Positions 3,306 to 64,000 of a DNA stretch of 64,000 nt are shown piece after piece (position 1 is the first letter of the stretch; each line of letters starts with the position of its first letter). The stretch comes from Planctomycetota bacterium. Its GTDB lineage: Bacteria > Planctomycetota > UBA1135 > JACQFD01. The DNA lies in assembly GCA_046160785.1 (NCBI GenBank), contig JBJXHE010000017.1:8038-72037 (forward strand), written 5' to 3'. The notes beneath the pieces were generated by a model. The model was not told the DNA's origin, searched no databases, and worked only from the letters and a program-made list of their open reading frames with translations. The position numbers and the translations under genes are program-made.

Positions 3306-5582
3306 TTAAGATTCAACTTCATAGAACGCACCCTTGAACTGAACGACAACATTCTTGCCGAGCGCGACACACGACGCGAGTTCCGGTTCCTTTGCGATCA
3401 GCGCGAAGTAGTCGTCCGAAAGAAACTTAATTTTAACAATATTGGTTTTGTCACGATCGGTAAACGTGTTTTCAACCCAGACATTGTTAACGTTCTGAAA
3501 AACGCGCTTTCCAACATTTCGCGTATTGGCGCGAATCGCGTCGGCGAGTTTTCCGCCGTCGCGCCGCTCCAATGATAGTATTACTTTTCCAGCAGCAGGC
3601 GGAGCGGTATTCGGTGCGGCGGCCGACGTCGAAGCTAAGTCTGACGCATTCTTACTATCTTCGACCGCGACTTCTCCAGAGGCTTTCTTTTCTAATGTTT
3701 CGAGCCTTCGTACGGAATCACGAACTTCATCTTCGAACGCGTCGCGGTCGCCGGCGAGGCCGCCGCCAAACGTTTCGCCCCATCCCGGACGTGGATTTGA
3801 TATACCGCGCGCGCTCGACAATCGTTGATTCTCTTCGACGACCAGAAATGATGTATACGGCGTAATAATATTATATTCTTTTCCGAGGCGCTTTATTTCA
3901 TCTATCAATTCGGGGTTGCTGCCGCGCAGGCGAATCTCATCCAAGAGGAATCCTACTTTTCGACCGGCCCAGAGCGCGGCTGTTGTATCATATTTTTCCT
4001 CGACTCTCGGAAAGTAAACTTCATAGGTAAATTCACGTTTCGATTCGCCGAACCGTCCGGAGAGTTTTAGTATCTTCTTTCCGTCGCCGCGATACCGGCC
4101 CGTCACCACGAGCTGGCTTCCGCGAAACAAATCGGGAAGCTGCCGCGGATATACATCAAAAAACTCGGCGTCGCCGCCGTCGATCGCAACGTCGGAAAGC
4201 ACGGGATTCGCTACTTTATCAAATAACGCGGAAACTTTTATTTCAACGTCTTCCTGCGGATGTACATATTCGCGAGCTGCCTTCGATTCGTTTGCGAGCG
4301 CGTCGAGTAATTGTGTATTAACGTCGAAGCCAACGCCAAATGTAAAGATTCGAAGGCCTTTTGTATTCTTTCCGCGGACTTTATTAAGTAATTGATTTTT
4401 ATCTGTAATTCCGACTGTCGGCAAACCGTCGGTTAAGAAAAATATCATTTGCATGCGTCCGGGCGCGGGTTCGTGGCGCAGCGCCGTGGAGAGCGCTTCA
4501 TCAATATTAGTGCCTCCGCGCGCTTCGAGTTTTTGGACCCACGCGCGAGCGCCTTCAATATTATCTTTTGTTGTTTCACAAATTTCCGGGCGAAACGCTT
4601 CGGCCTCGGTCGAAAATCGTATCATTGCAAAACGGTCATTGGCTGTCAGCCTTCCTAAACATTGCGCAAGCGCCTTCTTAGCTTGTTCCATCTTTTCGCC
4701 CGCCATGCTTCCCGATGTATCAAATACAAAAATAACATCTTTCGGCAATATTTGCGACGGCGCGAGATCGAAACGCGGCGTTAGCGATAACGTAAAGAAT
4801 CCGGGAGAGCCCACCGCGCGATGCACGAGAACGAGCGCGCCGAAGTCGCTTTGCGGCGAAACGAAAGTTAATATAAAGTTTTTGATTTGCGACGCGCCAG
4901 CGCCTTCATACGAAAAACGCGCAGCCTTTGAATTGATTTGTTTAACATCGAGCGCGTGCGTTGGCGAGTAGATACTTGCGATCGCGCGCTGCGAATCGAT
5001 CGTGCCTTCAATAATAAAAGACCGGATTCCCGCAGGAGAAAGCGCCGCGAGGCGCAAAGGTAATATATATTCTGAGAAACCTGCGGAGTCGCCGAGCAAA
5101 GTTGTATATTTTAATTGTACACGCGCCTGTCCGCGCGCGGGCACCGGGAATACCGACGCGCGCACGCAGCCGAGCCCGGCCCATTCGAGAATCGCGGGGT
5201 CGCGCTGCGATCGAACAATTCCTTCGTAGATCGAGCGCGCCTTATCTTTATCTAACAATTCCGCTTTTTGTGCTTTGCCGTCGATCCACAATTGAAAATC
5301 CGATACGGTCGCGCCCTCCGGAAGCGGCCAAATATAAGATTCTTCCGCGGGGGCGTTAGACGGATTATTAAATATCTGTTCGAGTTCCGTCGTTGCAGTC
5401 GTGTCATTGATGCGGATCGTCGCTCGTAGCGTGTCGAGATGCAAAACGCGCTGCGAAACCGATTGAATTGTAAATTCACGGTCGCGCGGAAGCGGCGCGA
5501 GTTGCCGCAGCGGCGTTGAGAATAATGGTATTGATAATGATAACGATAAAAGTGTAACTGTAGCGAGTCCCATTGATAGCAT
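3306..5582 (-). CDS. Secreted VIT + von Willebrand factor A domain protein (paralog B)
   Basis: The N-terminus is hydrophobic. A VIT-like region reads TIRINDTTATTELEQIF..YIWPLPEGATVSDFQLWIDGK. The VWA MIDAS motif is DVIFVFDTSGSMAGEK ... FLTDGLPT. The C-terminal ~65 aa are shared with the upstream paralog. Confidence 0.8.
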   Translation of the reverse strand: MLSMGLATVTLLSLSLSIPLFSTPLRQLAPLPRDREFTIQSVSQRVLHLDTLRATIRINDTTATTELEQIFNNPSNAPAEESYIWPLPEGATVSDFQLWIDGKAQKAELLDKDKARSIYEGIVRSQRDPAILEWAGLGCVRASVFPVPARGQARVQLKYTTLLGDSAGFSEYILPLRLAALSPAGIRSFIIEGTIDSQRAIASIYSPTHALDVKQINSKAARFSYEGAGASQIKNFILTFVSPQSDFGALVLVHRAVGSPGFFTLSLTPRFDLAPSQILPKDVIFVFDTSGSMAGEKMEQAKKALAQCLGRLTANDRFAMIRFSTEAEAFRPEICETTKDNIEGARAWVQKLEARGGTNIDEALSTALRHEPAPGRMQMIFFLTDGLPTVGITDKNQLLNKVRGKNTKGLRIFTFGVGFDVNTQLLDALANESKAAREYVHPQEDVEIKVSALFDKVANPVLSDVAIDGGDAEFFDVYPRQLPDLFRGSQLVVTGRYRGDGKKILKLSGRFGESKREFTYEVYFPRVEEKYDTTAALWAGRKVGFLLDEIRLRGSNPELIDEIKRLGKEYNIITPYTSFLVVEENQRLSSARGISNPRPGWGETFGGGLAGDRDAFEDEVRDSVRRLETLEKKASGEVAVEDSKNASDLASTSAAAPNTAPPAAGKVILSLERRDGGKLADAIRANTRNVGKRVFQNVNNVWVENTFTDRDKTNIVKIKFLSDDYFALIAKEPELASCVALGKNVVVQFKGAFYEVES

Positions 5583-5699
5583 TCCGGCCGGCCGACTTTC
5601 GCCTCCGATCCAAGCCCCGGCAACTGCGCGGATCGCTGACGGCGCGCTACCTCGTGGTATCGCCCGCCGAATCCATCACGAATCCCCGCGTTTTTTCTT

Positions 5700-5747
5700 A
5701 GGGACAGGTTAGGGGACAGGTTTGTACCTGTCCCCGGGACTGTCCCT
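5700..5747 (-). other. Two-tier GC-rich hairpin overlapping the stop codon of the upstream VIT-VWA gene
   Basis: The structure is AGGGACAG-gtta-GGGGACAGG-tttgta-CCTGTCCCC-ggga-CTGTCCCT, with a 9-bp inner and an 8-bp outer stem. Stop TAG (5746-5748) sits in the outer stem. No U-run follows on the coding (minus) strand, so it is not a canonical intrinsic terminator. Confidence 0.6.
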
Positions 5748-8031
5748 AGTCATGAATTTCATAAAAGACGTCGCCGACCTTAACGACGACGCGTTTGCCG
5801 AGCGCGAAACACGCGGCGAGCGAGGGCTCTTTCTTAAGGAGACTAAAATATTCGTTCGACAGGAATTGTATTTTTACAATTTTCTCTTTGTAGCTTTCGG
5901 TAAACGCCGATTCCACCCAAACGGTATCTATCAATTGGAACACGCGCGCGCCAACGGTCCGCGTCGTTTTTTGTAATGTCGGTATTGTAGGCGTGCGAAT
6001 TATAGTATCGGCGGGTCCGGGATACGTTGGACCGCCCGCGGCCGGAGTCGTCGGGCCGCCGGGTGCTGGCGTCGCCGGGCTACTTCCACCGGTAGGCGGC
6101 GAGGGAACTCCGGGCCGGCGGCCGGGACGCGCTGAAGGCGGATCCGGAGAGCTAAATCCGCCCGTTTGTTTACTTAACAAATCCGCTGCTTCGCTAGCAT
6201 CCACGGACGATGCGCCGGTTGTATTTGTAGCTAATGTTTCAAACCTCTTGCGCGCCGCGGCCGCTTCGCCGCGTTCCGAATTTGTTAATGTTCCGTCGCC
6301 GCGAAGGCGCGATGCGTCGACGCCGCGCGCGGCCGCGAGCCGTTCGCCGTCTTCAACAACTAAAAATGATGTGTAGGGAGTGATGATATGATATTTCCGC
6401 CCGACGCTCTTAATCTCATCGACGAGTTCCGGATTGTTACCATTCTTGCGGATTTCGTCGAGGAGGAATCCAACTTTTCGCGCCGCCCATAATTTACGAA
6501 TAGAATCATAACGTTCCTCTTTCGCTGGAAAATTAAAACTACAATTCCACTCTCGCGTCTCGCCAGCGACGTTGCCGAGCACTCGAATGGTTGTTATTCC
6601 GGCTCCTTGATAGCGGCCCGCGACGACGAGCCGGCCTCCGCGGAAAAGATCGGGCAGGCGTTTTGGATATATTTCAGATACGGCGAGGCCGTCCAAAAGA
6701 ATTGTTGTATCTGTTACGACTGGGCTCGACACTTTATCAAAGAGGGCGGAAATCTTAATTTCAATATTCTCTTCCGGACGCGCGTATTCCGTAATTCCGC
6801 GCGTCGTGTCGGCGAGTGAATCGAGCAGAACTGTATTCACGTTGACGCCGACGCCAAATGTAAAGATTCGAGTTTTGCGCCGGTTCATCGACTCGACCGA
6901 TCGCAAAATTTCTTTAACATCTGTGGATCCCACGGTCGGGATTCCGTCTGTTATGAAAAGAATCATGGCAAGGCGGTTTTCATTAGCTACTAATCGCAGC
7001 GCGGCGCTCAAAGCATCATGTATATTCGTTCCTCCGGCAGCTTCAATATTACGAATACAATTCGAAGCCTCCTCGACGTTTTCATTGGTTTTATCCAATA
7101 ATTTTTCGCTCTGGATCGAAACCTCCGAGCCGAAACGAATGAGAGCGAAGCGGTCGTGTGCTTCGAGGTGGCGAATACAATAATCGAGAGCGAGCTTGGC
7201 TTGCTCGATTTTCTCGCCGCGCATGCTGCCCGAAGTATCGCATACAAATATAACATCTTTTGGAATGGTGCGATTTGCATCAATGTTAGGATTGAAAACT
7301 AATGAAAAGAAACCGTCTTCGCCGGGCGTTCGATGCGCGACGGCCATCGATCCGAGCTCGTTGCCCGGATTTGCGTAAAGCAGCGAAAAATCTTTAACTT
7401 GAGATGGATCGTTCGTCTCAAACGAGAATTTTGATATCTTGTCTGTTGTTATAAATGCGGTGGTGTGCGTCGGCGAATAGGCCGTTAATATTTGTTTGTC
7501 CGACTCGACTGAACCGTCAATCACAAATGATCTGACGCCGCGCGGAGCGAGCGCGGCGAGCCGCAGCGGAAGCACATATTCATGAAACGGCCCCGTGGAA
7601 TGTATCAAATGAGAATATTGTAATTTAACTTTGGCGGTTCCACGCGCGGGCACCGGAAAAATCGACGCGCGCACGCACCCCTGGCCCGCCCATTCGAGAA
7701 GTCCGGGATCGCGCCGGCTCATAACAATTCGTTCGTAAACTCCTCGCGCCGTTTCTTTATCAAGCACCTCCGCGCTCATGGGTTTTCCGTCCATCCATAA
7801 TTGAAATTGCGTTACGGATGCGCCCTCCGGAATCGGCCAAAGATACTGTTCTTCGACGGGCGAATTCCGTTCATTACGAAACGTTTGCTCGATTTCGGTC
7901 GTCGCGACGTTATTAACAATTCGGACGTTCGCCGATATCGACTCTAAATGTAGCGTCAGAGCCTGATCGTTGGATGTCGCGCCCTGAACGGCGGCAAGAC
8001 TAAAAATGAATAATAGTAGTGTATTCAGCAC
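5746..8031 (-). CDS. Secreted VIT + von Willebrand factor A domain protein (paralog A)
   Basis: A signal peptide is present (MLNTLLLFIFSLAAVQGA). The VIT-like N-terminus and MIDAS motif (DVIFVCDTSGSMRGEK ... FITDGIPT) match paralog B. There is a Pro/Gly-rich linker, and the conserved C-terminal domain is shared with 3306-5582. Confidence 0.8.
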   Translation of the reverse strand: MLNTLLLFIFSLAAVQGATSNDQALTLHLESISANVRIVNNVATTEIEQTFRNERNSPVEEQYLWPIPEGASVTQFQLWMDGKPMSAEVLDKETARGVYERIVMSRRDPGLLEWAGQGCVRASIFPVPARGTAKVKLQYSHLIHSTGPFHEYVLPLRLAALAPRGVRSFVIDGSVESDKQILTAYSPTHTTAFITTDKISKFSFETNDPSQVKDFSLLYANPGNELGSMAVAHRTPGEDGFFSLVFNPNIDANRTIPKDVIFVCDTSGSMRGEKIEQAKLALDYCIRHLEAHDRFALIRFGSEVSIQSEKLLDKTNENVEEASNCIRNIEAAGGTNIHDALSAALRLVANENRLAMILFITDGIPTVGSTDVKEILRSVESMNRRKTRIFTFGVGVNVNTVLLDSLADTTRGITEYARPEENIEIKISALFDKVSSPVVTDTTILLDGLAVSEIYPKRLPDLFRGGRLVVAGRYQGAGITTIRVLGNVAGETREWNCSFNFPAKEERYDSIRKLWAARKVGFLLDEIRKNGNNPELVDEIKSVGRKYHIITPYTSFLVVEDGERLAAARGVDASRLRGDGTLTNSERGEAAAARKRFETLATNTTGASSVDASEAADLLSKQTGGFSSPDPPSARPGRRPGVPSPPTGGSSPATPAPGGPTTPAAGGPTYPGPADTIIRTPTIPTLQKTTRTVGARVFQLIDTVWVESAFTESYKEKIVKIQFLSNEYFSLLKKEPSLAACFALGKRVVVKVGDVFYEIHD

Positions 8032-9169: not shown

Positions 9170-9176
9170 CAGAGAG

Positions 9177-13750: not shown

Positions 13751-13805
13751 GGCATCCCTGCAAATTGTAAACATCCGTGGGAGACATCGAAGGGCCGGCC
13801 ACAAC

Positions 13806-13925: not shown

Positions 13926-14002
13926 TGGTGGGCGGCACAGGAGTTGAACCTGTGACCTCTACAATGTGAGCGTAGCGCTCTAACCAACTGAGCTAGCCGC
14001 CC
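13926..14002 (-). tRNA. tRNA-Val (anticodon CAC), CCA encoded
   Basis: Manual cloverleaf: acceptor GGGCGGC/GCCGCCC, D-arm GCTC-AGTTGGTTA-GAGC, anticodon arm CTACG-CTCACAT-TGTAG, variable loop AGGTC, T-arm ACAGG-TTCAACT-CCTGT, discriminator A, CCA. Confidence 0.9.
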
Positions 14003-23683: not shown

Positions 23684-23748
23684 GCGGAGCGCAAAGATAC
23701 ACGAAAGATCTGGTATGCTCCCGTGCTTGGCCTCTCACCTTCTCATCT

Positions 23749-49616: not shown

Positions 49617-50625
49617 TCGCTCGAGCCGCTTCCGCGCTCGCCTTTAAGATAAAATGAGCCGCGCGCTCGCCGGTCGCGCGTTCGAGATCGCCAGGCACTT
49701 CCTGCCCTGTACACAAAAACGCTAAAGGTAATTTTTGTTCGAATGCAACAGTTATCGCGGGCCCGCAATGTTCTGTTTCATCGAGTTTTGTAATCACCAA
49801 ACCCGTGGGCTTCGTTGCCTGGAATTCACGCGCCGCGGAGCGGACGGATTCGAGCGATTGCGTCGCGGATAATACTAATAATGTTTCGAGCCGCTCCGCG
49901 TGTCCGAGCGTTGACGCGAGCTCGGCCAGGCGCTCGGCGTCGTTCGGGCTGCGGCCCGTTGTATCAATTAAGATAATATCACAATCCCGATACTTCTCCG
50001 GCGCTCGTATCAAATCCGCGGGTGTAAATAATACACCAAACGGCGCGGCGAGCATGTCGGCGTACGCCCTCAGCTGCTCGACCGCGCCGATTCGATATGT
50101 ATCAAATGTGAGCAATGCAACTTTACGTTTCGACTGGCGCGTGAGCCGCCCGGCGAGTTTAGCAATCGTCGTCGTCTTTCCGACGCCGGTCGGCCCCACC
50201 AATGCAACTAATCGCGGGCCGCTGGCGTGCGGCGGGCGCGATGGCAAGATTGGAATCTGGTTTGCTAATGTTAGTGATGCAGCGTCGAAGGCTAATGTTC
50301 CTCCGTGCGGAGCGGCCGCGGCGAGTGCAAGACTGCGCAGGTCGCCCGTGATTCCCGCGCTGCGCAGCCGTTCGTTCAAGTCCTGCAGGCCCGCGGGCGC
50401 ATTCGACTCAAAATTAGCAATTCGCGCGCGCAGCAATTTTAACTCTTGCTGTATCGCTAATGATTCTCCGCCGGAGCCCGTTCGCGCGAAATTGTTAACA
50501 ACGACAAGCTCGACGCCGTCCGCCGTCGCGCGCGTTGTTAATATTCGAGCCTGGTCGCCCAGCTCTTCACGCGCGAGCAGCAGCGCCTCGCGAGCGGACG
50601 GAGCAAAAAAGCTGCGCACTCTCAT
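49609..50625 (-). CDS. flhF: SRP-type GTPase FlhF
   Basis: The G-domain motifs are VALVGPTGVGKTTTIAKLA, DTTGRS and ITKLDE. The N-terminus is FlhF-like (MRVRSFFAPSAREALLLAREELG). Confidence 0.85.
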   Translation of the reverse strand: MRVRSFFAPSAREALLLAREELGDQARILTTRATADGVELVVVNNFARTGSGGESLAIQQELKLLRARIANFESNAPAGLQDLNERLRSAGITGDLRSLALAAAAPHGGTLAFDAASLTLANQIPILPSRPPHASGPRLVALVGPTGVGKTTTIAKLAGRLTRQSKRKVALLTFDTYRIGAVEQLRAYADMLAAPFGVLFTPADLIRAPEKYRDCDIILIDTTGRSPNDAERLAELASTLGHAERLETLLVLSATQSLESVRSAAREFQATKPTGLVITKLDETEHCGPAITVAFEQKLPLAFLCTGQEVPGDLERATGERAAHFILKASAEAARANV

Positions 50626-52766: not shown

Positions 52767-52786
52767 TTGTTATTTCTTCGCTGCTT

Positions 52787-53869
52787 TTATCGGCGAACGC
52801 CCCGGCGCAACCGGAATATAAATGCCAAAACTTCCGCGACGGCTTTATACAAATCCATCGGGATCGCGATTCCAACTTCGGCGGATTTGTAAAGTGCGCG
52901 CGCGAGCGGGGGATTTTCAACAATCGGGACGCCCGCTTCCGTTGCGATTTCGCGAATTTTCTTAGCTATCAAATCCTGGCCTTTCGCAACGACGATCGGC
53001 GCGTCGTCCGCGGGTTCGAGCCCGCCCGGCCTTCTGTAACGAAGCGCGACGGCGAAGTGCGTTGGATTTGTTATAACTACAGTTGCGGTTGGAACGTCGG
53101 CGAGCATTTTCCGCTGCGCCGCGGCGCGTTGCGCTTTCCGGATGCGCGCTTTAATCGCGGGGTCGCCCTGCGCTTGTTTATTTTCATCTTTTACTTCTTC
53201 TTTAGTCATGCGCATGTCGCGGCTGAACTGCCAGCGTTGATACAAAAAATCGAGCCCGCCGACGAGCAGCGTTGCCATCGCGATTCTAAATAATAATGAA
53301 AACGCGAGCGACGCGCCGGTTCCAAAACTTGCGCGCAGCGGCGCGCGCCCGAGCGTTAGCATCTGTCCTATCAAATCACCGCTCGCCGCATATACAATTC
53401 CAATAATGAACGCTAATTTCAAAAGTGCGGTTGAAAGCTGCACCAGCGACCGCGGCGAGAAGAGGCGCTTCATGCCAGTCGCCGGATCCATGCGCTCAAA
53501 CTTTAAATCTAACGTTTCCGTGCGCAGCCGGAAGCCCACTTGAAGATATGCAATAATCGCAGCGGAGCCGACCAGCCCCGCAAGCATCGGAAGCGCCGCG
53601 GGAGCGATTCGATTTGCGATTTGTACTAAATGACTACTGATCATGCTGAGGTCGACGTCGCCGCGCGGCACGCCCGCGAGAGTGTCGCGCAGGAAGTCTT
53701 GTAATACTAAGAATATCGGAGCTCCGGAAAGTCCGACAAGCCCGAGCCCGATCAATAACAAAACGGATTGTGATAATTCGGAACTGTATGCAACTTGCCC
53801 TTTGTTGGCCGCATCATCGAGCCGTTTGCCAGAGGCCTCCTCGGTACGTTGATCTTGATCGCCTGCCAT
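52787..53869 (-). CDS. flhB: Flagellar export switch protein FlhB
   Basis: The N-terminus reads QDQRTEEASGKRLDDAANKGQV. The NPTH autocleavage site is present (VVITNPTHFAVAL). Confidence 0.95.
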   Translation of the reverse strand: MAGDQDQRTEEASGKRLDDAANKGQVAYSSELSQSVLLLIGLGLVGLSGAPIFLVLQDFLRDTLAGVPRGDVDLSMISSHLVQIANRIAPAALPMLAGLVGSAAIIAYLQVGFRLRTETLDLKFERMDPATGMKRLFSPRSLVQLSTALLKLAFIIGIVYAASGDLIGQMLTLGRAPLRASFGTGASLAFSLLFRIAMATLLVGGLDFLYQRWQFSRDMRMTKEEVKDENKQAQGDPAIKARIRKAQRAAAQRKMLADVPTATVVITNPTHFAVALRYRRPGGLEPADDAPIVVAKGQDLIAKKIREIATEAGVPIVENPPLARALYKSAEVGIAIPMDLYKAVAEVLAFIFRLRRGVRR

Positions 53870-53896
53870 TGAATTATTATATTATCAACAAAAATA

Positions 53897-54682
53897 TTAT
53901 TGAATGCCCGGCAATGCTTCAAAAAGCGCGCTTCGCATCAATTCAAATAACGATTCGAGCCCGATGCGCAGCGCCGGTAACAATAACGCAAGTGCGCCGA
54001 GTGCCGCGGCGACTCGGAGCGCGTAGCCCGAGTCGAGAATGTTTAATTGTGGAACCGCGCGCGAAACGACTCCCAACAGAACTGTTACAACAAACATTGC
54101 AATCATAATCGGCGCAGCGAGCGCAACGCCCGCCTCGATGAATCGCGTTAATATTTGTATTAGTCCCGCGATCGGATCGGGCCCGAAATCAAATGTTCCG
54201 ACGGGAATCTTATGAAATGAATGGGCGAGGCCGGCGACGATCCACTCGTGCGCGCCAAGTGTAATAAAAATGAGCCCCGCGATGGTTTGATAAAGAGTTG
54301 TTATAACCGGCGAACTCGTTCCGCTGACCGGGTCGAGCGTCGCCGAAAGGTTAAGACCCATTTCTGTTGTAACTAATTCGCCGGCGACGCGCACGCCCGC
54401 GAAGGCGCATGCAATGATCCACCCGAGCAGCGCTCCTACTAAAAACTCGCGCGCGACGAATGGTATGATTGCCAATCCTAACGATGGGCCCGTCCACTCG
54501 GGCGCCTTCACCGCGGGCATTAATACTATTGTGATCGCCACGCCGAGCGCCATTTTGTAGCGATTGAATCCGCCCGAGCCCGTGAAGAGCGGCGCCGTGG
54601 AAATGAGGGCGAGCACGCGTGTTAAGAATAACACGGCGTATTCAATCTTGACGGGAAATATATAAGTTAAAAATTCGTACAC
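53897..54682 (-). CDS. fliR: Flagellar export gate protein FliR
   Basis: The 261-aa polytopic protein sits between fliQ and flhB. Confidence 0.9.
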   Translation of the reverse strand: MYEFLTYIFPVKIEYAVLFLTRVLALISTAPLFTGSGGFNRYKMALGVAITIVLMPAVKAPEWTGPSLGLAIIPFVAREFLVGALLGWIIACAFAGVRVAGELVTTEMGLNLSATLDPVSGTSSPVITTLYQTIAGLIFITLGAHEWIVAGLAHSFHKIPVGTFDFGPDPIAGLIQILTRFIEAGVALAAPIMIAMFVVTVLLGVVSRAVPQLNILDSGYALRVAAALGALALLLPALRIGLESLFELMRSALFEALPGIQ

Positions 54683-54700
54683 GGATTTCGCTTCGATTGA

Positions 54701-54976
54701 TTATTTTACAGATGCGTAGCGCGGCAGCTCCCGAAGCAGGTGGGCCGTATAATTAACAACCTTTCCCATGCCCCACGGAAATACGAGCAACGTCACTGCG
54801 AGCACCGCGATCATTTTCGGAACGCTCGCGAGCGTTTGTTCATGAACGGCGGTGACGGTTTGCAGGATTGCTACAATTAAGCCGACGACGAGCGCGGTCG
54901 CGAGCATGGGTAGACTTACCAATAACGCGAGAATGAGAAGTTCGCGGCCGAGGTCGAGAACGAGCGTTGAATTCAT
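54701..54976 (-). CDS. fliQ: Flagellar export gate protein FliQ
   Basis: The 91-aa protein has two TM helices and a typical FliQ sequence (LLVGLIVAILQTVTAVHEQTL). Confidence 0.9.
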   Translation of the reverse strand: MNSTLVLDLGRELLILALLVSLPMLATALVVGLIVAILQTVTAVHEQTLASVPKMIAVLAVTLLVFPWGMGKVVNYTAHLLRELPRYASVK

Positions 54977-55006
54977 CAGATTAATTATGTTATACTTGTG
55001 GTTTAT

Positions 55007-55717
55007 TTATACTTGAACCGATTCGACGAGGGAGCGAATGACGAGATTCCATCCGTCGACGAGAACAAATAACAATACTTTGAGCGGCGTCGAGATCATC
55101 GTCGGCGGCAACATAAACATTCCCATGGATAGCAATACCGCTGAGACGACGAGGTCGATTAGAATAAACGGCAGGAAAATTAAGAATCCCATCGTGAACG
55201 CCGTCTTGATTTCGCTCATTAAGAACGCGGGAACTACAATTCGAAGTTCGAGGTCTTGTTTATTATTAGGCTTTGCTGTTCCGGAAATATCAACAAAAAG
55301 CTGCAGATCCGAGTCGCGCGTATGGTGCAGCAGAAATCCTTTAATAATCGTGCTGCCTTCCATGCCCGCTTCCTTGAGCGAGACCTTCCCTTCCGAATAC
55401 GGCACGATCGCTTTATCATAAACCTGCGACGCCGTCGGATACATAATAAATAATGTTAAGAATAGCGACAGCCCCATGAGCACTTGATTCGGCGGCAATT
55501 CTTGAATCGCGATGGCGCGGCGCACGAACGAAAGAACAATGATGATTCTCGTAAAGCATGTAACAGATACGAGAATTGCCGGCAGCAGCGAAAGTAATGT
55601 TAATACGGCCGCCATCTCGAGCGGCGCGGGAAGCCGTCCGGGCTGGGCGAGCGCATCGCCGGCTTTTGCCATCGCGTCGACAGCGGGGTTTTGTAAAATG
55701 CTCAATAACGCAATCAT
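55007..55717 (-). CDS. fliP: Flagellar export gate protein FliP
   Basis: The sequence shows conserved FliP motifs (FTRIIIVLSFVRRAIAIQELPPNQVLMGLSLFLTLFIM; PFILIDLVV). Confidence 0.95.
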   Translation of the reverse strand: MIALLSILQNPAVDAMAKAGDALAQPGRLPAPLEMAAVLTLLSLLPAILVSVTCFTRIIIVLSFVRRAIAIQELPPNQVLMGLSLFLTLFIMYPTASQVYDKAIVPYSEGKVSLKEAGMEGSTIIKGFLLHHTRDSDLQLFVDISGTAKPNNKQDLELRIVVPAFLMSEIKTAFTMGFLIFLPFILIDLVVSAVLLSMGMFMLPPTMISTPLKVLLFVLVDGWNLVIRSLVESVQV

Positions 55718-56469
55718 TACAATAAGTCCTCGTCAACGCTCGCGCCCACTGTTACATTTAGTCTTGCATTCTCCATTTCTTGCAATTCCGCGATCGTGCG
55801 CCGCGGCGCCGGCTGCGTTCTGCGGGGCATCGCGGAAATCTCAACGTCGCGATCTGTATCATTTGTTAACGGACGCGATCCCGCATCGGCAGACGGAGCC
55901 GCGCGCGGCTTCGATCGTTGCAAGAGATTATTGATAAGTCCGCGAAACGCGGGAACCGCGTCGCGGCGGCCATCATGATTCAATTCCAATTCGCGCGCCG
56001 CGATTTCGGCGGGAGCGAGCCCGGCTTCTTCTTCCTTGAGTTCTGTAATAAACGACACGGGGCCTTCGCCGATCCCGAGCACGACGACGCGGTCGTAAAT
56101 GCGCGCGACGGCAATCGACTTCTTGTTGCCAAGATTTAATACATCAATAACTTCGAGCCGTTTTTTTTGTCCGCGTTTGCGGAACGATAACGTTTTTGTA
56201 TGTTTAATGATCCACAGCGACGCGAACCCCGTCGCGGCGATTCCTAAGATTGCGATTCCTAACTTTGCGAGCGCTTCTTCATCGGCCGTCGCCGCTTTGC
56301 TTATGGTTTCATGAGTCTTTGCCTCGTTGGAAGAAACTACAATTTTCGCCGGCCGCGTCGCGCCGCCGTTGGCGTTCGTCGGGAATAGTAGTGGTGTTGC
56401 TAAGATTGCGGCGAGCACGCCGACGAGGGCGATGGCGATCGGAATGAAGCGATTCGAGAGCTTGTTCAC
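55717..56469 (-). CDS. fliO: FliO-like protein (long form)
   Basis: It starts at GTG and has one N-terminal and one central TM helix. A FliO-like core reads LEVIDVLNLGNKKSIAVARIYDRVVVLGIGEGPVSFITEL. It lies directly upstream of fliP with a 1-nt overlap. Confidence 0.6.
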   Translation of the reverse strand: MNKLSNRFIPIAIALVGVLAAILATPLLFPTNANGGATRPAKIVVSSNEAKTHETISKAATADEEALAKLGIAILGIAATGFASLWIIKHTKTLSFRKRGQKKRLEVIDVLNLGNKKSIAVARIYDRVVVLGIGEGPVSFITELKEEEAGLAPAEIAARELELNHDGRRDAVPAFRGLINNLLQRSKPRAAPSADAGSRPLTNDTDRDVEISAMPRRTQPAPRRTIAELQEMENARLNVTVGASVDEDLL

Positions 56470-57660: not shown

Positions 57661-59814
57661 ATGGAAACGCCGCCCAAGCCCGCCGTCTTTTGGAAACATA
57701 TCCTTTTCGCGGAAGAAACGCCGCTCACACCCGCCGGATGGCTCGGAAACCAGCCGGCCGCATCATTATCAAAAGCGATCGAGGCTGTCGCGGCGCGACG
57801 CAAAGTTAAAGAATCCCGCGACGCTGTTTTCTTAGTGATTCGATCCGGAACGGCTGCCGAAGCGCAGTGGTGGATTTATGAATTTGTCGAGGACCGAATC
57901 CTAGATGTAGCGATCGGCGACATTGCGATTCACGACCTTCCGCTCGCGGCCGACCCCGATGCGCCGCAAACGTATCTCATCGACGCGTTTGGCGCCGTTG
58001 GAAAGTTAGTTATCGAAAATGCACAGTTCGCAATTCGGAAAATGGCGATCCGCGCAGACGCCGGGAGCGCTGCCGCAATACTTCAATTAGAAGAACCCGC
58101 GGTCGCGCGCGCGGTCGTCGACGGATTTGTAGTTCCGCGCGAAATGTCAAATCACGCCCAGAATATTCGTTGGACGCCAAAATATGCATTTAAGCCCGGC
58201 GCTTCTCTCGCAACGTTAGCGAACGGACTCGCGTGGATGTCTGCAAATCTCCCAAAGGATATAAACATTCGCGCGGTGGGATCGCGGCACTCGTGGTCGC
58301 CGATCGCGCGCTGCGACGGCGTCACGGTTCTTCCCGGCGGTTGGACGGGAATATCACAATTGAACGCGGCCGGCGTTGCGCCAAATATAACAGATCCGGA
58401 TAGTTTATTTCGCGTTCTCGCGGGCGTCCGTATTCGAGAATTGAATTCTGGATTGCAACGATTCGGGCGGGCGATTCCGTATCTCGGCGGTTTCGATGGA
58501 CAAACAATCGGCGGCGTGCTGCCGACGGGCACGCACGGGTCCGTTCTCGCGCACGGCCCGCTCGCCGATCTGATTCGTAGTATCGATTTAGTTTGTTTTG
58601 ATGGCCAAATACTACGAATCGAGCCTGCGCGCGAGCCGGTCACAAATGTAAATATTCTTCCGCCGTTAATTGCAAATGAAAAAGTAAAAATAACACTTCG
58701 ACTCGACGACGATCTGTTCGACGCGGTGCGCGTGGGGCTTGGCGCATTCGGAGTGATTCATTCACTCGTGATCAAGACGGTTCCGAAGTTTTGGTTAAAA
58801 GAGGTTCGGACCGTCGCATTGTTTTCAGATATATCCAATCGGCTCGCCGGCGAAAATATATCCAATGTATTTGAAACAAAAGAAACCGTGCTCGCGAAAG
58901 CGGAGAATCCTGCGCTGCCGGTTGTCGCTGCGCCCGGCGGGCTCGGGTTCGACGGGCATCCGAAGCGCGCGTTTCATTTTGAACTTCTCTGGAATCCTTA
59001 TACTGGAAAAACGCTTATAACAACTCGCCACTGGGTCGACGAACCTATACGAAAGGAACTCGAGAAACGGGAGCCGCGCTTTTTTGATAATCCACCGATT
59101 CGTAATATTTTTCGAATACTCGGACTCGACCCGATGCCCGACGAATTCAGCCGCCCGGACGCCGTTGAAATATTAACAGAACACGCAGGTCCGGCCTCGA
59201 TTGGGCTCGTCGAACAGATCGCGAAAGACAATCCGGGCGCAATGATAAAATTAATCGACACGGCGATCGACGGTCTCGCCGACCGGAAAGGATATATTCA
59301 ACGAAGTTATAATGTATTTAATATTGGAAAGGCCGCGAATCTGCTGCCGTCGCTGTCGGCGACCATTTCCGTTCCGCTCAAAAACGATCTTTGGCTTCGC
59401 GCCGCGGAATTGATGGCATCCGTTGTGAATGAAAAACTAAGAAGCGGCCTCGTGCTCACGGCGCCAACCTCTCTGCGTTTTGTTAGAGAATCGAATGCGT
59501 GGATGGCCGATCCCGCGGACGTTTGCAAATTTGAAATTATCTTCGGAGGCAATAGTAAATTTTTGCAAACAACGTCGAACGAACTCGTGGGCGCGATCTA
59601 TCACGCGCTCTGCGGCGCGCTCGGAATTGATCATATTCGCTTTCATTGGGGCCAGCTCATTCCGAACGGTACGCTCGACGTGGCCGGCATTAATAATAAA
59701 CGGCCGGTGCCGGCGGCGTTTCCTAATTATATCAAATGGAGAAAGTTGCGCGACGAGCTCGATCCCGATCATCGCGGCATGACACCGTGGCTCGAATCCA
59801 TCCTTCCGAAATAA
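57661..59814 (+). CDS. FAD-linked oxidase (sugar-1,4-lactone oxidase / VAO-like) with an N-terminal extension
   Basis: The FAD-binding PCMH-type region reads IRAVGSRHSWSP ... GQTIGGVLPTGTHGS. The C-terminal ALO-like part ends IRFHWGQ. The first ~170 aa carry no recognisable motif. Confidence 0.7.
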   Translation: METPPKPAVFWKHILFAEETPLTPAGWLGNQPAASLSKAIEAVAARRKVKESRDAVFLVIRSGTAAEAQWWIYEFVEDRILDVAIGDIAIHDLPLAADPDAPQTYLIDAFGAVGKLVIENAQFAIRKMAIRADAGSAAAILQLEEPAVARAVVDGFVVPREMSNHAQNIRWTPKYAFKPGASLATLANGLAWMSANLPKDINIRAVGSRHSWSPIARCDGVTVLPGGWTGISQLNAAGVAPNITDPDSLFRVLAGVRIRELNSGLQRFGRAIPYLGGFDGQTIGGVLPTGTHGSVLAHGPLADLIRSIDLVCFDGQILRIEPAREPVTNVNILPPLIANEKVKITLRLDDDLFDAVRVGLGAFGVIHSLVIKTVPKFWLKEVRTVALFSDISNRLAGENISNVFETKETVLAKAENPALPVVAAPGGLGFDGHPKRAFHFELLWNPYTGKTLITTRHWVDEPIRKELEKREPRFFDNPPIRNIFRILGLDPMPDEFSRPDAVEILTEHAGPASIGLVEQIAKDNPGAMIKLIDTAIDGLADRKGYIQRSYNVFNIGKAANLLPSLSATISVPLKNDLWLRAAELMASVVNEKLRSGLVLTAPTSLRFVRESNAWMADPADVCKFEIIFGGNSKFLQTTSNELVGAIYHALCGALGIDHIRFHWGQLIPNGTLDVAGINNKRPVPAAFPNYIKWRKLRDELDPDHRGMTPWLESILPK

Positions 59815-60002
59815 ACCAACTTTTCGCAAACGATAAAAACTTCAAAAACAAACTGTTGAATATCAACTTCACAAATAGCAATATCAGGATCATTCGCAAG
59901 CGGAACGAATCCGCGGCTGGCTGGCAGTGTGCTACTATTCCGTGCTGTATAATCCGTGCACAGTAGATTCATATTTATAACAATAGGAACAATAGGTGAC
60001 CC

Positions 60003-62039
60003 GTGAAGTTACTATCGATGCCGCGCGCCTTTGACGAAATCGCGACGCGTTACATTGCGTTTCTCGCGGCGCTCCTCGCCGTATTCTTAGGAACCTCGCT
60101 TGCGTGCCACGAGATGGGAATGCGCGGAATCCCGTCGATGCGAGACTTTTTTATTATTCGCGGAGTTGGAAGTCTCGAGAACGCCGTCGGATTTATTCCG
60201 GGCCTCGTCGCGATGTTTTTATTGTTGGTTGCCGCGACAGCCGCTTTGGTAACGAATGCATCATTCAAATCATTTGCAATTCGCGCGTTTGAATCGATCG
60301 TCGCCGGATTTTTACTATCCGTAATGTTAGGAACGATCCGCGACAACGAAGGCGGCACGATTGGTTATTTTCTGGGAAGCCGGCTCGCCGCAACGATGTC
60401 GACGCCGATCGCCGTCTCGCTTTGCGCGGTGACGTCGCTGCTCGCGTTATGGTTAGTATTCGAAGGAAATCTTCGCGATCTCGCGAGCGTCGAGATAAGT
60501 AAAAAGGCTCCGCGCCCGGCTCCGGCCCCGGCTTTTGAAATACAACGGGAAATACAACATTCAATACAACAGACAACACAACAAAAGGAAGAACCCGCCG
60601 ATTCGAAGAATGTTGCATTTGACCTTTCTGTAGCAAAGGCCGTGGAAGCGAATCCACCGGTTCATGAAAAAATCACAATTGCGCCGCAGGTCTCCGAGTT
60701 CCAGCCAGTCGATCTTGCGGATCTAAATGACCCTCTTGTCCGCGTTCGCCCCCGCAAGAGTGTGGTGCCCGTTGAAGGATCCCCGCGGCGGCGTGTCCCC
60801 GAACCCGCTCGCGAGCCGTATCCCGTTTCAGACCCAGACTCAGACTCACATCAAATTCACAATTCTGCCGAAGGAACAGAACCTAAGCTTGATGTTGATG
60901 CGTCAAATGGCGTATTAAATATTGTCGGCGACGCGCCTCCCTCGTTCGCCCAACCGACGATTCATCAAGAGCTAACGGCTGCAGGTGTCCCCGAATCCTC
61001 GCAATCGCAAACTCTAGAATTAGAATTAGTAAATTACGTCCCAACGGTTGGGTTTATTAATAATGAGACAAAACAAGATGAAATCTATGAAAGCGTTGAC
61101 GCCGATCGAGGTCCATTGTTTGACGAGTTCGGACGGATTCGAACTCTGGAACAACACGTGGAACCTCCCGTCGAAATGGTTGGACCGGCCGAAGCCGGCG
61201 AAGGCCCGGCAGGACTGTCTGCCCTCTCCGCAACCGTTATCGAATACGACAATTATTCCCGTAGCGAAGCCAAACCCGCGAAAGAAGCAGGACACGAAGA
61301 AGCGAACGGCGACTCGCGGCGAACGTTAAGTCTTTCCCGATTAAAGGGGCCGCAATATCAAGAAACGGAATTGATAGATTGGGATCTTCCGCGAACGATT
61401 CCCGACGCGCCGGCGCCGAAAGCGAAAACACCCCAGCTCGAATTGTTTGATACCGGATTTGATACAACAGAATCGGGAATTGCGGCGACGGTCATAGCTC
61501 CCGCCGTGGAAGAGCTGTCCGTCGATAAAACGGCCGTGAATGTTAGTGAAGCCGCTCCCGCCGAAACGAAGAAACGCGGACGGCGCAAGCAGCAAAATAA
61601 AGAATCGGAAGCCGCGCCTCATGTTACAGAAAATATTTCAGAGAGCGTTCCAGCAGTTGTTTCAGACAGCGTTGCAGCGAGTGCGATCGTTAGTGATCTG
61701 CCGGATGTTAAGATTGAGGCGCCCGTTGAAATTGTTGCCGTAGCCGTGCCTGCAGCCGCGATCGTTCCACCTTCTGAACAGCCGGCCGCGCAAACATCAA
61801 CTGGACAGGCAACATCTGAACAATCGCCCGACCTGTTCCTCGATCGCGCCGCGCGCGTTGTGATTTCGCAGGGCCGCGCATCGATATCATTTCTCCAACG
61901 AAAACTGAGTATTTCACTCGGAGACGCGCAGCACATCATGGCCGCGCTCGAAGCGGCGGGTGTCGTCGGACCCTACCGGGGCACTCCGTCGAGAGATATT
62001 CTAATCGATCTTGCAGAGTGGGACGCTCGCCGATTGTAA
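60003..62039 (+). CDS. FtsK-like protein with 4TM N-domain and gamma (winged-helix) C-domain but no motor ATPase
   Basis: The start is GTG. Four TM segments include NEGGTIGYFLGSRL (FtsK_4TM-like). A ~400-aa acidic/Pro-rich linker follows. The C-terminus LFLDRAARVVISQGRASISFLQRKLSISLGDAQHIMAALEAAGVVGP aligns by eye to FtsK-gamma. I saw no Walker A motif. Confidence 0.65.
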   Translation: MKLLSMPRAFDEIATRYIAFLAALLAVFLGTSLACHEMGMRGIPSMRDFFIIRGVGSLENAVGFIPGLVAMFLLLVAATAALVTNASFKSFAIRAFESIVAGFLLSVMLGTIRDNEGGTIGYFLGSRLAATMSTPIAVSLCAVTSLLALWLVFEGNLRDLASVEISKKAPRPAPAPAFEIQREIQHSIQQTTQQKEEPADSKNVAFDLSVAKAVEANPPVHEKITIAPQVSEFQPVDLADLNDPLVRVRPRKSVVPVEGSPRRRVPEPAREPYPVSDPDSDSHQIHNSAEGTEPKLDVDASNGVLNIVGDAPPSFAQPTIHQELTAAGVPESSQSQTLELELVNYVPTVGFINNETKQDEIYESVDADRGPLFDEFGRIRTLEQHVEPPVEMVGPAEAGEGPAGLSALSATVIEYDNYSRSEAKPAKEAGHEEANGDSRRTLSLSRLKGPQYQETELIDWDLPRTIPDAPAPKAKTPQLELFDTGFDTTESGIAATVIAPAVEELSVDKTAVNVSEAAPAETKKRGRRKQQNKESEAAPHVTENISESVPAVVSDSVAASAIVSDLPDVKIEAPVEIVAVAVPAAAIVPPSEQPAAQTSTGQATSEQSPDLFLDRAARVVISQGRASISFLQRKLSISLGDAQHIMAALEAAGVVGPYRGTPSRDILIDLAEWDARRL

Positions 62040-62072
62040 CATTTAATTGTTAACGGCGGGGTCTCTCCCCAC

Positions 62073-63482
62073 ATGACCGCTCCGCCCAACAAAAAAACAA
62101 CTCGCGTTAGTCTTGTCCATCTTGGTTGCGCCAAAAACCAGGTCGACTCGGAAGTATTGTTAGGTCGCCTCGCCAGCGACGGCGCTGTTATTTGTAATGA
62201 TGTCGCCGATTCTGAGGTTGCCGTTTTAAACACTTGTGCGTTCATCGGCCCGGCTCGCGAAGAGTCGATGTCGGCGATCCGAGAATTAGTTAACAAAAAA
62301 CGCGCGGGCGAATTGCGCGGCGTGATCGTCGCGGGATGCTTAACACAACTATTCCGCCCCGACTTGGAAGCCGATCCCGAGCTCGCTGACGTTGACGCAT
62401 TTATAGGTTTGAGCGACTACACCGGAATTTCGGAGGTCGTACGCGCAATCGACGACGGCCGCAACGCGCGTGCGCTGACAGGCGGTGCCGTTCGCGGTTT
62501 ACCGATCGACACGGTTCGATTGTTAACAGGTCCCGCGTCTTTTGCATATTTAAGAATCTCGGAAGGCTGCGACCACGATTGCGCCTTTTGTATCATTCCG
62601 CGGATTCGCGGAAAACACCGCAGCAAATCATTACAACAATTACGCTCCGAGACGGAGGCGCTCGCGGCGCAGGGCGTTCGCGAAATTGTTATGGTTGCCG
62701 AAGACTCGACGTGGTTTGGTCGCGACACCGACGGACCGCAGCGCCTGCCCGATGCAATACAAACAATCGCGGACGTGCCCGGAATTCGATGGGTGCGCGC
62801 CATGTACGCGTATCCGAACGGGCTTCCGAAGGGATTAACTACAGTTCTGCGCGATCACGAAAACGTCGTCGAATATTTAGATATTCCAATTCAACACATC
62901 GCGGGAAATGTATTAAAAGCGATGCGTCGCGCGTCGTCGGGCGATCGCGTGCGTGAAACATTAAATATGTTGCGCGCGGAAGTGCCGGGCATCGCGCTCC
63001 GCACGACGGTTATTGTTGGTTTTCCCGGAGAGACCGAAGCCGATTTTATTGAATTGCTCGAATTTGTTAGATCATTCCGGTTCGAGCGGCTCGGCGCGTT
63101 TCGCTACTCGCCCGAGAAGAATACGGCCGCGAACGCGCTCGCGGGCGCCGTTCCGCCCGAGGAAATCGAAAAACGTTATGATTCGATCATGCGCGCGCAG
63201 CGCGAAATTGTTATCGAACGTAACAAATCGCTGATCGGTAAAGAACTCGAAATATTAATTGATTCGGTTGACGCGCGCGGAACCGCGACGGGGCGCACGC
63301 GAGCCGACGCGCCCGAGATTGATTGTAGTATTCGCTTAATTGGCAAAGGATTTCCCGGGCAAATTCTCGACGCAAAAGTGCTGTCGATTGAAAACGACGG
63401 TTATGACTTAGTCGTGAAACCTATCAAAAACACCGTTGCGCGCCGCGGGCCTGCCGGCGGATCCGCGAAGCTTCAATGTTAA
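62073..63482 (+). CDS. rimO: Ribosomal protein S12 methylthiotransferase
   Basis: The UPF0004 N-domain is VSLVHLGCAKNQVDSE. The radical-SAM motif is CDHDCAFC. A TRAM-like C-terminus is present. The protein is 469 aa. Confidence 0.9.
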   Translation: MTAPPNKKTTRVSLVHLGCAKNQVDSEVLLGRLASDGAVICNDVADSEVAVLNTCAFIGPAREESMSAIRELVNKKRAGELRGVIVAGCLTQLFRPDLEADPELADVDAFIGLSDYTGISEVVRAIDDGRNARALTGGAVRGLPIDTVRLLTGPASFAYLRISEGCDHDCAFCIIPRIRGKHRSKSLQQLRSETEALAAQGVREIVMVAEDSTWFGRDTDGPQRLPDAIQTIADVPGIRWVRAMYAYPNGLPKGLTTVLRDHENVVEYLDIPIQHIAGNVLKAMRRASSGDRVRETLNMLRAEVPGIALRTTVIVGFPGETEADFIELLEFVRSFRFERLGAFRYSPEKNTAANALAGAVPPEEIEKRYDSIMRAQREIVIERNKSLIGKELEILIDSVDARGTATGRTRADAPEIDCSIRLIGKGFPGQILDAKVLSIENDGYDLVVKPIKNTVARRGPAGGSAKLQC

Positions 63483-64000
63483 AGACTGTTGCCGACTGGA
63501 TCACGGCGGCTCGATTTATATTATCGATTGTTTTATTCTATTTCCTTTGGGCGGCAGAAGTAACAAATCCGGCGGAACGCTCGGCGATTGCGTGGACGTG
63601 TTTTGTATTATTCGTCGTCGCGGCGATCACGGATCTGCTCGACGGCGCCGTCGCGCGCGCGACGAAATTGAGCGAGTTCGGCAGAGTCGCTGATCCGTTT
63701 GTAGATAAAGTTCTGGTCGTCGGAACGTTAGTATTCCTTGCTGCAATTCCCGAAACGAGAAAATATATACAAACGTGGGCTGTGGTTACGATTGTCGCGC
63801 GCGAGTTTTTTGTAACCGGCGTGCGCGGATTCGCCGAAGCGAAGGGAATGGCGTTTCCGGCCGACGCGTTTGGAAAGCTAAAGATGGTTTTGCAATGCAT
63901 GTCGGCGGGCGGCGGATTGTTATGTTTGGCAGGCGCGGGCGCGAAAGGCGACGGCGGAATTATCAGTATATTCTGGGAATACGTGCCCGAGATCACCGTC
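63476..64000 (+). CDS. pgsA: CDP-diacylglycerol--glycerol-3-phosphate 3-phosphatidyltransferase, 3' end outside window
   Basis: The ATG overlaps the rimO stop. The CDP-alcohol phosphatidyltransferase motif is DLLDGAVARATKLSEFGRVADPFVDK. The frame is open to nt 64000. It is absent from the ORF track because it has no stop in the window. Confidence 0.85.
   Translation, partial: MLKTVADWITAARFILSIVLFYFLWAAEVTNPAERSAIAWTCFVLFVVAAITDLLDGAVARATKLSEFGRVADPFVDKVLVVGTLVFLAAIPETRKYIQTWAVVTIVAREFFVTGVRGFAEAKGMAFPADAFGKLKMVLQCMSAGGGLLCLAGAGAKGDGGIISIFWEYVPEITV

Follow-up and report, generated by a model that had tools for sequence, protein, structure and literature searches.

The question raised by this locus is what a protein built like FtsK at both ends, with no motor in between, could do for a bacterium. 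The gene concerned lies at 60003..62039 on the plus strand of a 64,000-nucleotide stretch of DNA from a Planctomycetota bacterium (NCBI GenBank assembly GCA_046160785.1, contig JBJXHE010000017.1, positions 8,038 to 72,037), which we refer to throughout as the window. The product is an integral membrane protein that lacks an ATPase and carries a winged helix of the FtsK gamma type on a flexible tether in the cytoplasm. Since this architecture of anchor and gamma domain without a motor is conserved, the protein cannot pump DNA. We regard it with high confidence as a conserved motor-less paralogue of FtsK.

The Planctomycetota host group belongs to a phylum that lacks FtsZ and in which FtsK is the central division protein. 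How division is organised in these bacteria, and how it is linked to chromosome segregation, is the question on which the family described here bears. A natural FtsK paralogue that has no pump and is under selection separates the scaffold and regulatory functions of FtsK from translocation, and offers a handle on the stand-alone roles of the N-terminal and gamma domains and on the re-targeting of the gamma surface. There is also a practical consequence, as surveys of FtsK presence or absence that go by name or by a gamma match would miscount the motor-less protein. The weight of these points is limited by the narrow distribution of the family and by its being known only from uncultured organisms.

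Protein layout and absence of a motor

The open reading frame (ORF) is uninterrupted from a GTG start at 60003 to the TAA stop at 62037-62039 and encodes 678 amino acids. In the NCBI model, P0001 (MFN0205100.1), translation starts five codons later at ATG 60018, giving 673 amino acids, and the product is labeled 'MAG: DNA translocase FtsK [Planctomycetota bacterium]'; the entry for a relative, P0008 (MBI3820865.1), reads hypothetical protein. The AlphaFold model, built from a 13-sequence alignment, has two confident ends and nothing folded between them. Hydropathy, Pfam and AlphaFold agree with the anatomy given in a preliminary description of the window, namely four transmembrane (TM) helices, an acidic, proline-rich linker and a gamma domain in one continuous frame.

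A motor was sought in several ways. Pfam families PF01580 and PF17854 had no match at E≤10 in the target protein and none at E≤1 in 13 family members. In tblastn searches of the whole 64-kb window with canonical FtsK, only the gamma region matched. The six frames of 59900-62100 contain no Walker A motif, and a motor vestige in the linker was rejected as a candidate after full-length profile-profile alignment (hhalign) of the linker with the FtsK motor returned zero confidence. The RecA-like alpha/beta motor with Walker A and B motifs that defines the translocase is missing, and the name 'DNA translocase FtsK' is a misnomer because P0001 has no motor. The preliminary description had likewise seen neither Walker A/B motifs, nor a RecA-like domain, nor a frameshifted motor remnant, and Pfam, tblastn, the six-frame search, hhalign and AlphaFold were all negative on these points. 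The profile searches proposed there gave a significant match to PF09397 and none to PF01580 or PF13491, and detected no divergent P-loop in the linker.

An NCBIfam search of the protein and a PADLOC search returned no matches, and PHROG matches were restricted to the gamma region (best 42 bits). Thus no match to phage or defense families extends beyond the gamma domain, and the neighborhood is that of a housekeeping chromosome.

The gamma domain and its contact face

The C-terminal winged helix is encoded at 61818..62036 (+), with the Pfam match at 61830-62006. PF09397 is matched by residues 610-668 with 56.6 bits against a gathering cut-off of 30.6 (E 2e-15), and among PDB sequences the P. 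aeruginosa FtsK gamma domain (2j5o/2ve8) is matched with E 2e-6. AlphaFold models residues 601-673 as a confident winged helix (pLDDT 80-95), which Foldseek aligns with the FtsK gamma structures 2j5p, 2ve8 and 2ve9 at TM-scores of 0.77-0.89 and with 41-43% identity to the P. aeruginosa domain. The gamma assignment, first made by eye, is therefore significant by Pfam, by PDB sequence and by structure.

In E. coli FtsK, residues 1289-1297 (RQFRIGYNR) form the surface that contacts the FtsK orienting polar sequences (KOPS) in DNA and activates XerD, and R1289 forms a critical salt bridge (PMC5052618). R1300, E1303 and E1306 read KOPS, and the triple alanine mutant is KOPS-blind (PMC2680272). We compared these positions, in E. 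coli numbering, in an alignment of 15 family sequences, two sequences from sister lineages and 18 canonical gamma domains. Seven scaffold positions, A1282, S1283, S1285, Q1288, R1289, G1309 and R1320, are conserved in both the canonical and the motor-less sets. The contact positions differ. G1294, invariant in the canonical domains, is S or P in the family; position 1297, always R or K in the canonical set, is D or E in 13 of the 15 family members; the invariant R1300 has become H in eight and L in two and is kept in five; and position 1303, always D or E in canonical FtsK, has mostly lost its acidic residue and is mostly A or S. E1306, present in 14 of the 18 canonical sequences, is kept. The net charge of the segment from helix H2 through the loop to H3 is +2.5 (+1 to +4) in the canonical domains versus -0.3 (-2 to +1) in the family. 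In the target protein the equivalent of E. coli 1289-1297 reads 'RKLSISLGD' (61899..61925, +), in which R1289 is kept and G1294, Y1295, N1296 and R1297 are replaced, so that the set of KOPS/XerD contact residues (G1294, Y1295, N1296, R1297, R1300, E1303 and E1306, with R1289) is not intact. The two motor-less proteins of the sister lineages retain R1300, E1303 and E1306.

The stretch that has taken the place of the canonical one, 'RKLxI(S/P)(F/L)GDAQ(H/R)', is nearly invariant within the family. The target protein carries the family gamma signature 'RASISFLQRKLxIxFGDAQ...GVVGPYRGNPSRDILL' together with both linker islands described below. As read from this alignment, the contact surface is re-specified and not decaying, because its new sequence is nearly invariant. 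With the KOPS/XerD residues replaced and the charge lowered, canonical KOPS reading by the gamma head is therefore unlikely. The pattern implies a specific partner for the gamma head, which may be a protein or a different DNA feature.

The membrane anchor

The N-terminal membrane domain occupies 60003..60512 (+), as delimited by hydropathy, the AlphaFold helical bundle and a family-specific profile. Hydropathy places the TM helices at residues 17-35, 65-83, 91-109 and 135-153 of the ORF, that is at 60051-60107 (TM1), 60195-60251 (TM2), 60273-60329 (TM3) and 60405-60461 (TM4), all on the plus strand. AlphaFold models residues 1-160 as a confident helical bundle (pLDDT 76-92), and from hydropathy and charge distribution both termini of the anchor are predicted to be cytoplasmic. 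The loop between TM3 and TM4 (60330..60404, +) contains the sequence 'EGGTIGYFLG' and in the family alignments has the conserved acidic form 'D/E-x-E-GG-x-x-G...G-x-R-L', with G112, G113, G116, G120 and L123 (P0001 numbering) invariant. It occupies the position of the second periplasmic loop, with its SGG motif, of E. coli FtsK-N. That loop is functionally important in E. coli, where D135, D136 and Y139 lie just before SGG (PMC6113214).

Thus the domain has the topology of FtsK_4TM, with four TM helices, cytoplasmic termini and a GG loop between TM3 and TM4, and its TM spacing is identical to that of canonical FtsKs and matches that of P0005 and P0020. The sequence match is far less clear. Pfam PF13491 has no match at E≤10 in the target protein and none in any of 13 family members, no canonical FtsK appeared among the matches of the exhaustive N-terminal profile search (described below), and a Foldseek search with the domain returned nothing meaningful. 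In hhalign comparisons with a 16-sequence alignment of canonical FtsK 4TM domains, the family alone aligned over 150 columns with a probability of 17% (E 1.5e-3), and the family together with the sister sequences over 150 columns with 41% (E 2.9e-4); reversed-sequence controls gave 0.6-0.7%, with E of about 0.1, over 35 columns. The match is collinear across the whole domain, with TM1 to TM4 in register and the acidic GG loop aligned with the GG loop of canonical FtsK. The resemblance to the FtsK 4TM domain noted earlier thus holds for topology, spacing and the collinear GG loop, but not at the level of a Pfam match, and hhalign lends it 17-41%. Homology of the anchor with FtsK_4TM is likely but unproven, as the match is statistically weak and suggestive only.

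The linker

Between the anchor and the gamma domain lies a linker of about 435 residues (60513..61817, +; residues about 171-605), identified by composition, AlphaFold and Pfam. It is rich in A, P, E, V and S, has a net charge of -33 and has no motor remnant. AlphaFold gives pLDDT below 50 and no secondary structure for residues 188-601, and the linker is predicted to be fully disordered.

Across the family the length and sequence of the linker vary freely outside two islands. The first, 'DPLVRVRPRK' (60729..60758, +; family consensus DPEVRLRPR), is a candidate short linear interaction motif in which D238, V241, R242, P245 and R246 are invariant in a 4-sequence alignment; it is kept in the 13-sequence consensus. 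The second, 'WDLPRTIP' (61380..61403, +), is also seen in both the 4- and 13-sequence alignments. Both DPEVRLRPR and (W)DLPRTIP resemble short linear motifs used for docking. The second resembles '[YW]xLPPxxLL', which lies about 153 residues upstream of Walker A in canonical FtsK, and its [YW]xLP core is found in 9 of 13 members. The chance of meeting the core in a shuffled linker is about 0.03, in a comparison that was made post hoc and among related sequences. For these reasons we rejected 'WDLPRTIP' as a remnant of that pre-alpha junction, and it hints no more than weakly at an origin from a full-length FtsK. Reading of the sequence also revealed a basic patch, 'KKRGRRKQQNK' (61569..61601, +), within the otherwise acidic linker. 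Only some members have such a patch; in P0002 and P0006 it reads KKPRGRKPK and is AT-hook-like.

Family distribution and conservation

We searched 1.84 billion representative proteins exhaustively with a HMMER profile of the N-terminal domain alone and found 13 strong relatives (E<1e-30) and one weaker match, the 372-residue P0015 (E 2e-4). The target protein scores 263.8 bits against the family N-terminal profile. A word-index search with the N-terminal alignment came back empty. We set this null result aside, as hydrophobic words had saturated the candidates and the profile itself reaches about 260 bits against family members. The family comprises P0001-P0004 and P0006-P0015, and the wider group adds L007b, L008b and L091b.

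The plan of four-TM anchor, variable acidic linker and gamma domain is common to all 13 relatives and P0015, and FtsK_gamma is the sole significant Pfam domain in all 13 of the full-length members. Conservation in the 4- and 13-sequence alignments is concentrated in the anchor, the gamma domain and the two linker islands. All sources are metagenome-assembled genomes and metagenomes labeled Planctomycetota, and the 90% clusters contain one to four sequences each. The rarity of the family was borne out when metagenomes were scanned with its alignment, yielding L088, which is full-length and ridden with frameshifts, and the fragments L089 and L090.

The intact ORF recurs in independent assemblies. 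The preliminary description had left room for the gene being a recent deletion pseudogene; at least 15 divergent sequences from independent assemblies have the intact architecture instead. By these comparisons the gene is conserved under selection, and both a recent deletion pseudogene and an assembly artefact are excluded because there are many divergent intact copies with constrained ends.

Tandem ftsK pairs and the origin of the gene

The central finding comes from related lineages. We used RimO, the product of the gene next to the target, as an anchor and scanned locally 80 loci from species-representative Planctomycetota genomes. The family gene adjoins rimO on its upstream side only where RimO is closest to that of the window, in L003 and L004 (74-77% identity) and L005 (72%; the same contig as L001); L006 (53%) bears a truncated copy. 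In the next-closest loci, L007 and L008 (RimO 55-56%), two genes with a gamma domain lie in front of rimO. For some 72 more distantly related Planctomycetota, no gamma domain or motor was encoded less than 10 kb from rimO.

In L008 (pair at 4841-9630) the upstream gene is a complete ftsK (P0020) of 962 residues, with Pfam matches to the 4TM, alpha, SpoIIIE and gamma domains, that ends at 7729. It is followed by a motor-less gene for 634 residues, whose GTG start at 7726 overlaps the ftsK stop, and then by rimO. In the 634-residue protein, four TM helices and a 'GGTLGQIVGG' loop are combined with a poly-D/E linker and a gamma domain; a motor is absent. The stop/start overlap (7726-7729) suggests translational coupling. 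The arrangement in L007 (4588-9620) is the same, with its ftsK split over two frames (4TM in 4850..5854, motor and gamma in 4900..7722). This frameshift, on a 7-Mb long-read contig, is probably an assembly indel error and not a real pseudogene, and ftsK is intact in the Illumina-based L008. A third pair is found in L091 (3-3963), where a canonical ftsK (motor and gamma) ends at 2285 and is directly followed by a gene for a 573-residue protein with TM helices, an acidic linker and gamma. The L091 FtsK is closest to the L008-type FtsK (55-58% identity). In hhalign the motor-less anchors of L007 and L008 match the family with 95.5% (E 1.6e-8), and that of L091 matches the family profile with 78.6% (E 1.7e-5).

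On the strength of these tandem pairs in L007/L008 and L091, the motor-less gene is best read as a paralogue that was born next to ftsK and would be expressed with it. Its origin may have been a tandem duplication of ftsK in the ancestor of a small uncultured group of Planctomycetota, followed by loss of the alpha/beta motor. In the clade of the window the link to ftsK would then have been broken and that to rimO-pgsA retained, while the tandem pair survives in the related lineages. The suggestion made at the outset that the protein modulates a full-length FtsK gains support here, as a homologous motor-less gene directly follows a complete ftsK in two related lineages.

As to a canonical FtsK in the clade of the window, ftsK is reported to be conserved throughout the Planctomycetes-Verrucomicrobia-Chlamydiae (PVC) superphylum and is the only essential gene of the division and cell wall (dcw) cluster in P. 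limnophila (PMC12283558). Four canonical FtsKs, P0022-P0025, form a tight clade with 72-81% mutual identity and are about 53% identical to the sister-clade FtsK, a figure that parallels the one for RimO (about 55%). In composition (GC and tetranucleotide; r about 0.5), the P0022 contig comes nearest to the family-bearing loci. We did not adopt an assignment of P0022-P0025 to the clade of the window, as they come from different samples and assemblies and the GC and tetranucleotide comparison is only circumstantial. Circumstantial evidence suggests that a canonical FtsK exists in the genome of the window.

Short ORFs of about 75 residues with a weak gamma-like match (38-49 bits) were seen at L114 943-1164, L144 883-1113 and L155 1064-1282. 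They lie directly 3' of canonical ftsK on short metagenomic contigs and may be mini gamma paralogues or chance ORFs.

Proposed function and alternative explanations

The reading that we favor, though only by a little over even, is that the protein is a motor-less FtsK paralogue that assists the FtsK/Xer apparatus of segregation and division; the accessory mechanism, inferred and taken by itself, falls slightly short of an even chance. The anchor would place the protein in the membrane, and the acidic disordered tether would give it reach. The gamma-like head would serve as a docking module, whose canonical DNA/XerD face was rewired and then frozen by selection, and its specific partner may be a Xer-type recombinase, FtsK itself or differently specified DNA instead of canonical KOPS. 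FtsK-N hexamerises independently of the motor and does so at midcell (PMC3870252); therefore an anchor like FtsK-N could form homo-oligomers, or mixed oligomers with FtsK, and so bring extra, differently specified gamma heads to the same site. Several points weigh against this proposal. The family is known from sequence alone and all its members are from uncultured organisms. Homology of the anchor with FtsK_4TM is statistically insecure, with Pfam silent and hhalign at only 17-41%. Rewiring of the gamma face casts doubt on binding to XerD and to DNA alike. Linkage in the clade is to rimO, pgsA and pgpA and not to ftsK, which could mean a different functional connection. Finally, tblastn found no canonical ftsK in the 64-kb window, and the compositional link to P0022 is circumstantial.

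The main alternatives differ in what they make of the gamma head, of the missing pump and of the anchor. The head might hold specific, possibly skewed, DNA motifs at the membrane or division site without pumping, so that the protein would be a chromosome-membrane tether. In favor of this are the intact gamma fold, the conservation of Q1288/R1289 and of the wing arginine R1320, the R1300/E1303/E1306 kept by the sister-lineage proteins, and the AT-hook-like basic patch that several members have in the linker and that could contribute unspecific binding to DNA. Yet the family has lost G1294, carries D or E at 1297 in 13 of 15 members and H or L for R1300 in 10 of 15, and has mostly lost the acidic residue at 1303; the fall in H2-loop-H3 net charge from +2.5 to -0.3 points the same way, and the long acidic linker (net -33) would repel DNA. 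We therefore consider a tether unlikely, and the tethering of KOPS-type sequences put forward in the preliminary description is weakened by the replacement of G1294, R1297, R1300 and E1303, with the charge reversed at 1297. Another possibility is that the clade has lost the canonical pump and that its sole FtsK-like protein, the motor-less one, serves just as a division scaffold in the manner of FtsK-N. It would account for there being no canonical ftsK adjoining the gene in the clade of the window, unlike in the sister lineages. That observation, however, covers 64 kb of genome only, ftsK is reported to be conserved throughout the PVC superphylum (PMC12283558), and the distances of the P0022-P0025 FtsKs mirror those of RimO, one of their contigs being compositionally closest to the family loci. 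We find this highly improbable. A version in which the pump was lost or replaced and in which, without translocation, the rewired gamma head of a membrane scaffold acts on Xer-type recombination or on another partner by activation or positioning seems to us no less so. Were the protein the sole FtsK, it would be a natural uncoupling of the division and regulatory roles of FtsK from DNA pumping in an FtsZ-less bacterium.

The anchor could also be an unrelated four-helix membrane domain that captured gamma by shuffling, which would make the product a winged-helix protein unrelated to division. The silence of PF13491 in every member and the exhaustive profile search with the N-terminal domain, which brought up no canonical FtsK, fit such an origin, and other motor-less gamma architectures do occur (DnaJ-gamma-TM and Zn-ribbon-gamma-TM, and the phage cases of PMC8190038). 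What makes shuffling very unlikely in our estimation is the collinear hhalign match to FtsK 4TM, at 17-41% versus less than 1% over 35 columns for the reversed controls, along with the identical TM spacing, the position of the gene directly after ftsK in two lineages, and the acidic linker that follows the anchor as in the neighboring canonical FtsKs. Decay or error has also to be considered, as a recent internal deletion of ftsK, a split gene or a mis-assembly. The NCBI product name would be in keeping with a remnant, and error-prone assemblies do exist among the related loci, with frameshifts in the L007 ftsK and in L088. This explanation is effectively refuted by the intact architecture with strongly conserved ends in at least 15 divergent sequences from independent assemblies, by the absence of a motor in any frame of the window, and by the adjacent ftsK genes of the sister lineages, which are complete with their own anchor and gamma. 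The accessory paralogue thus remains the reading that we prefer.

Comparison with known systems

The family shares with FtsK/SpoIIIE proteins (E. coli FtsK; P0020, P0022-P0024) the order of a four-TM anchor with a GG loop, an acidic disordered linker and gamma. It also shares the gamma scaffold residues and, in related lineages, adjacency to ftsK. Unlike them it has no alpha/beta RecA-like motor, its anchor is too divergent for PF13491, and its recognition stretch is 'IS(L/F)GDAQH' in place of 'IGY(N/T)RA(A/S)R'. Engineered E. coli FtsK-N and FtsK-deltaC localise, hexamerise and support division without the translocase (PMC3870252; PMC12283558). They resemble the family in consisting of a membrane domain with or without linker and no translocase, and they show that a motor-less FtsK can function. 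In contrast to these laboratory constructs, which lack gamma, the family keeps a modified gamma domain and coexists with a full ftsK at least in sister lineages.

Another natural parallel is SftA of B. subtilis, likewise an additional paralogue of the FtsK family in which one module is missing and which works together with the complete translocase. Its truncation is the opposite one, as SftA keeps the motor and has no anchor, whereas the family keeps the anchor and has no motor. The Xer activation factor XafT of the TLC-phi satellite phage is, like the family, motor-less and reportedly assumes one regulatory task of FtsK gamma, the activation of XerD, without translocating DNA. XafT is said to be soluble, phage-encoded and not of the gamma fold, and would be a functional analogy only, under one of the partner scenarios above.

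Use of gamma without a motor is not confined to this family. Phages encode a small terminase with an N-terminal FtsK_gamma domain and standalone gamma-like genes (PMC8190038). Our metagenome scan added DnaJ-gamma and Zn-ribbon-gamma proteins, each with a C-terminal TM helix (L124 7776-8471 and L160 1207-1629), a protein that joins gamma to an Mrr_cat nuclease and carries a degenerate P-loop, matched as a weak FtsK_SpoIIIE fragment (L137 778-2595), and three proteins in which gamma accompanies a domain of unknown type (L111 197-1111, L126 9575-10294 and L156 299-988). All six use gamma without a functional FtsK motor, like the family, and L124 and L160 are likewise membrane-tethered. The differences are that these other proteins keep the canonical 'IGYNRAAR' helix, have unrelated partner domains and no N-terminal four-TM anchor with a long acidic linker, and are unlinked to ftsK or rimO. 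We found no published description of a 4TM-plus-gamma protein without a motor in a literature search that fell short of all journals. Gamma without a motor is therefore not unique, and the FtsK-like paralogue of anchor, linker and gamma is a distinct, apparently undescribed variant.

Genomic neighborhood

A rimO-type radical-SAM methylthiotransferase gene (62073..63482, +) begins 33 bp downstream of the target and is its conserved neighbor. No terminator-like site was seen in the 33-bp gap, and the two genes are probably co-transcribed. The start of a pgsA-type CDP-alcohol phosphatidyltransferase gene (63476..64000, +), part of a conserved rimO-pgsA-pgpA block, follows and runs out of the window. 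The order target-rimO-pgsA-pgpA-HAMP/SpoIIE-mazG-priA is shared by the window, L001, L002, L003, L004 and L084 and by the loci of P0004, P0002 and P0007, and a position directly 5' of rimO-pgsA-pgpA was found also for the fragment in L089.

The gene is preceded by a gap of 188 bp (59815-60002) that is AT-rich. AGGTGA is located 3-4 nt 5' of GTG 60003, and a perfect TATAAT was spotted by eye in the gap about 50 nt before the start; a consensus sigma-70 promoter scan of the gap reported nothing. Further upstream the order is a divergent flagellar export operon (flhA, flhB, fliR, fliP and fliO; 50625-56469, -), an epimerase gene and a gene with an FAD-binding domain. The same flagellar export block precedes the target in L084, which suggests a flagellated clade. 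The gene at 57661-59814, which separates the target from the epimerase gene, encodes a 717-residue protein with only a partial FAD_binding_4 match. This slot 5' of the target is variable, being occupied by a peptidase-S41-like gene in L084 and by nothing in L001.

Elsewhere in the window, two adjacent paralogous genes at 3306-8031 (-) encode proteins of 758 and 761 residues with VIT and von Willebrand factor A domains, and an 808-residue ORF at 11378-13804 (-) has no Pfam match. A partial Pyr_redox_2 match is the only one in a 1328-residue ORF at 23479-27465 (+), whose start as listed overlaps the neighboring gene for a 1122-residue DUF7133/HEAT protein. The only Rfam/ARAGORN match in the window is a tRNA-Val(CAC) at 13926-14002 (-).

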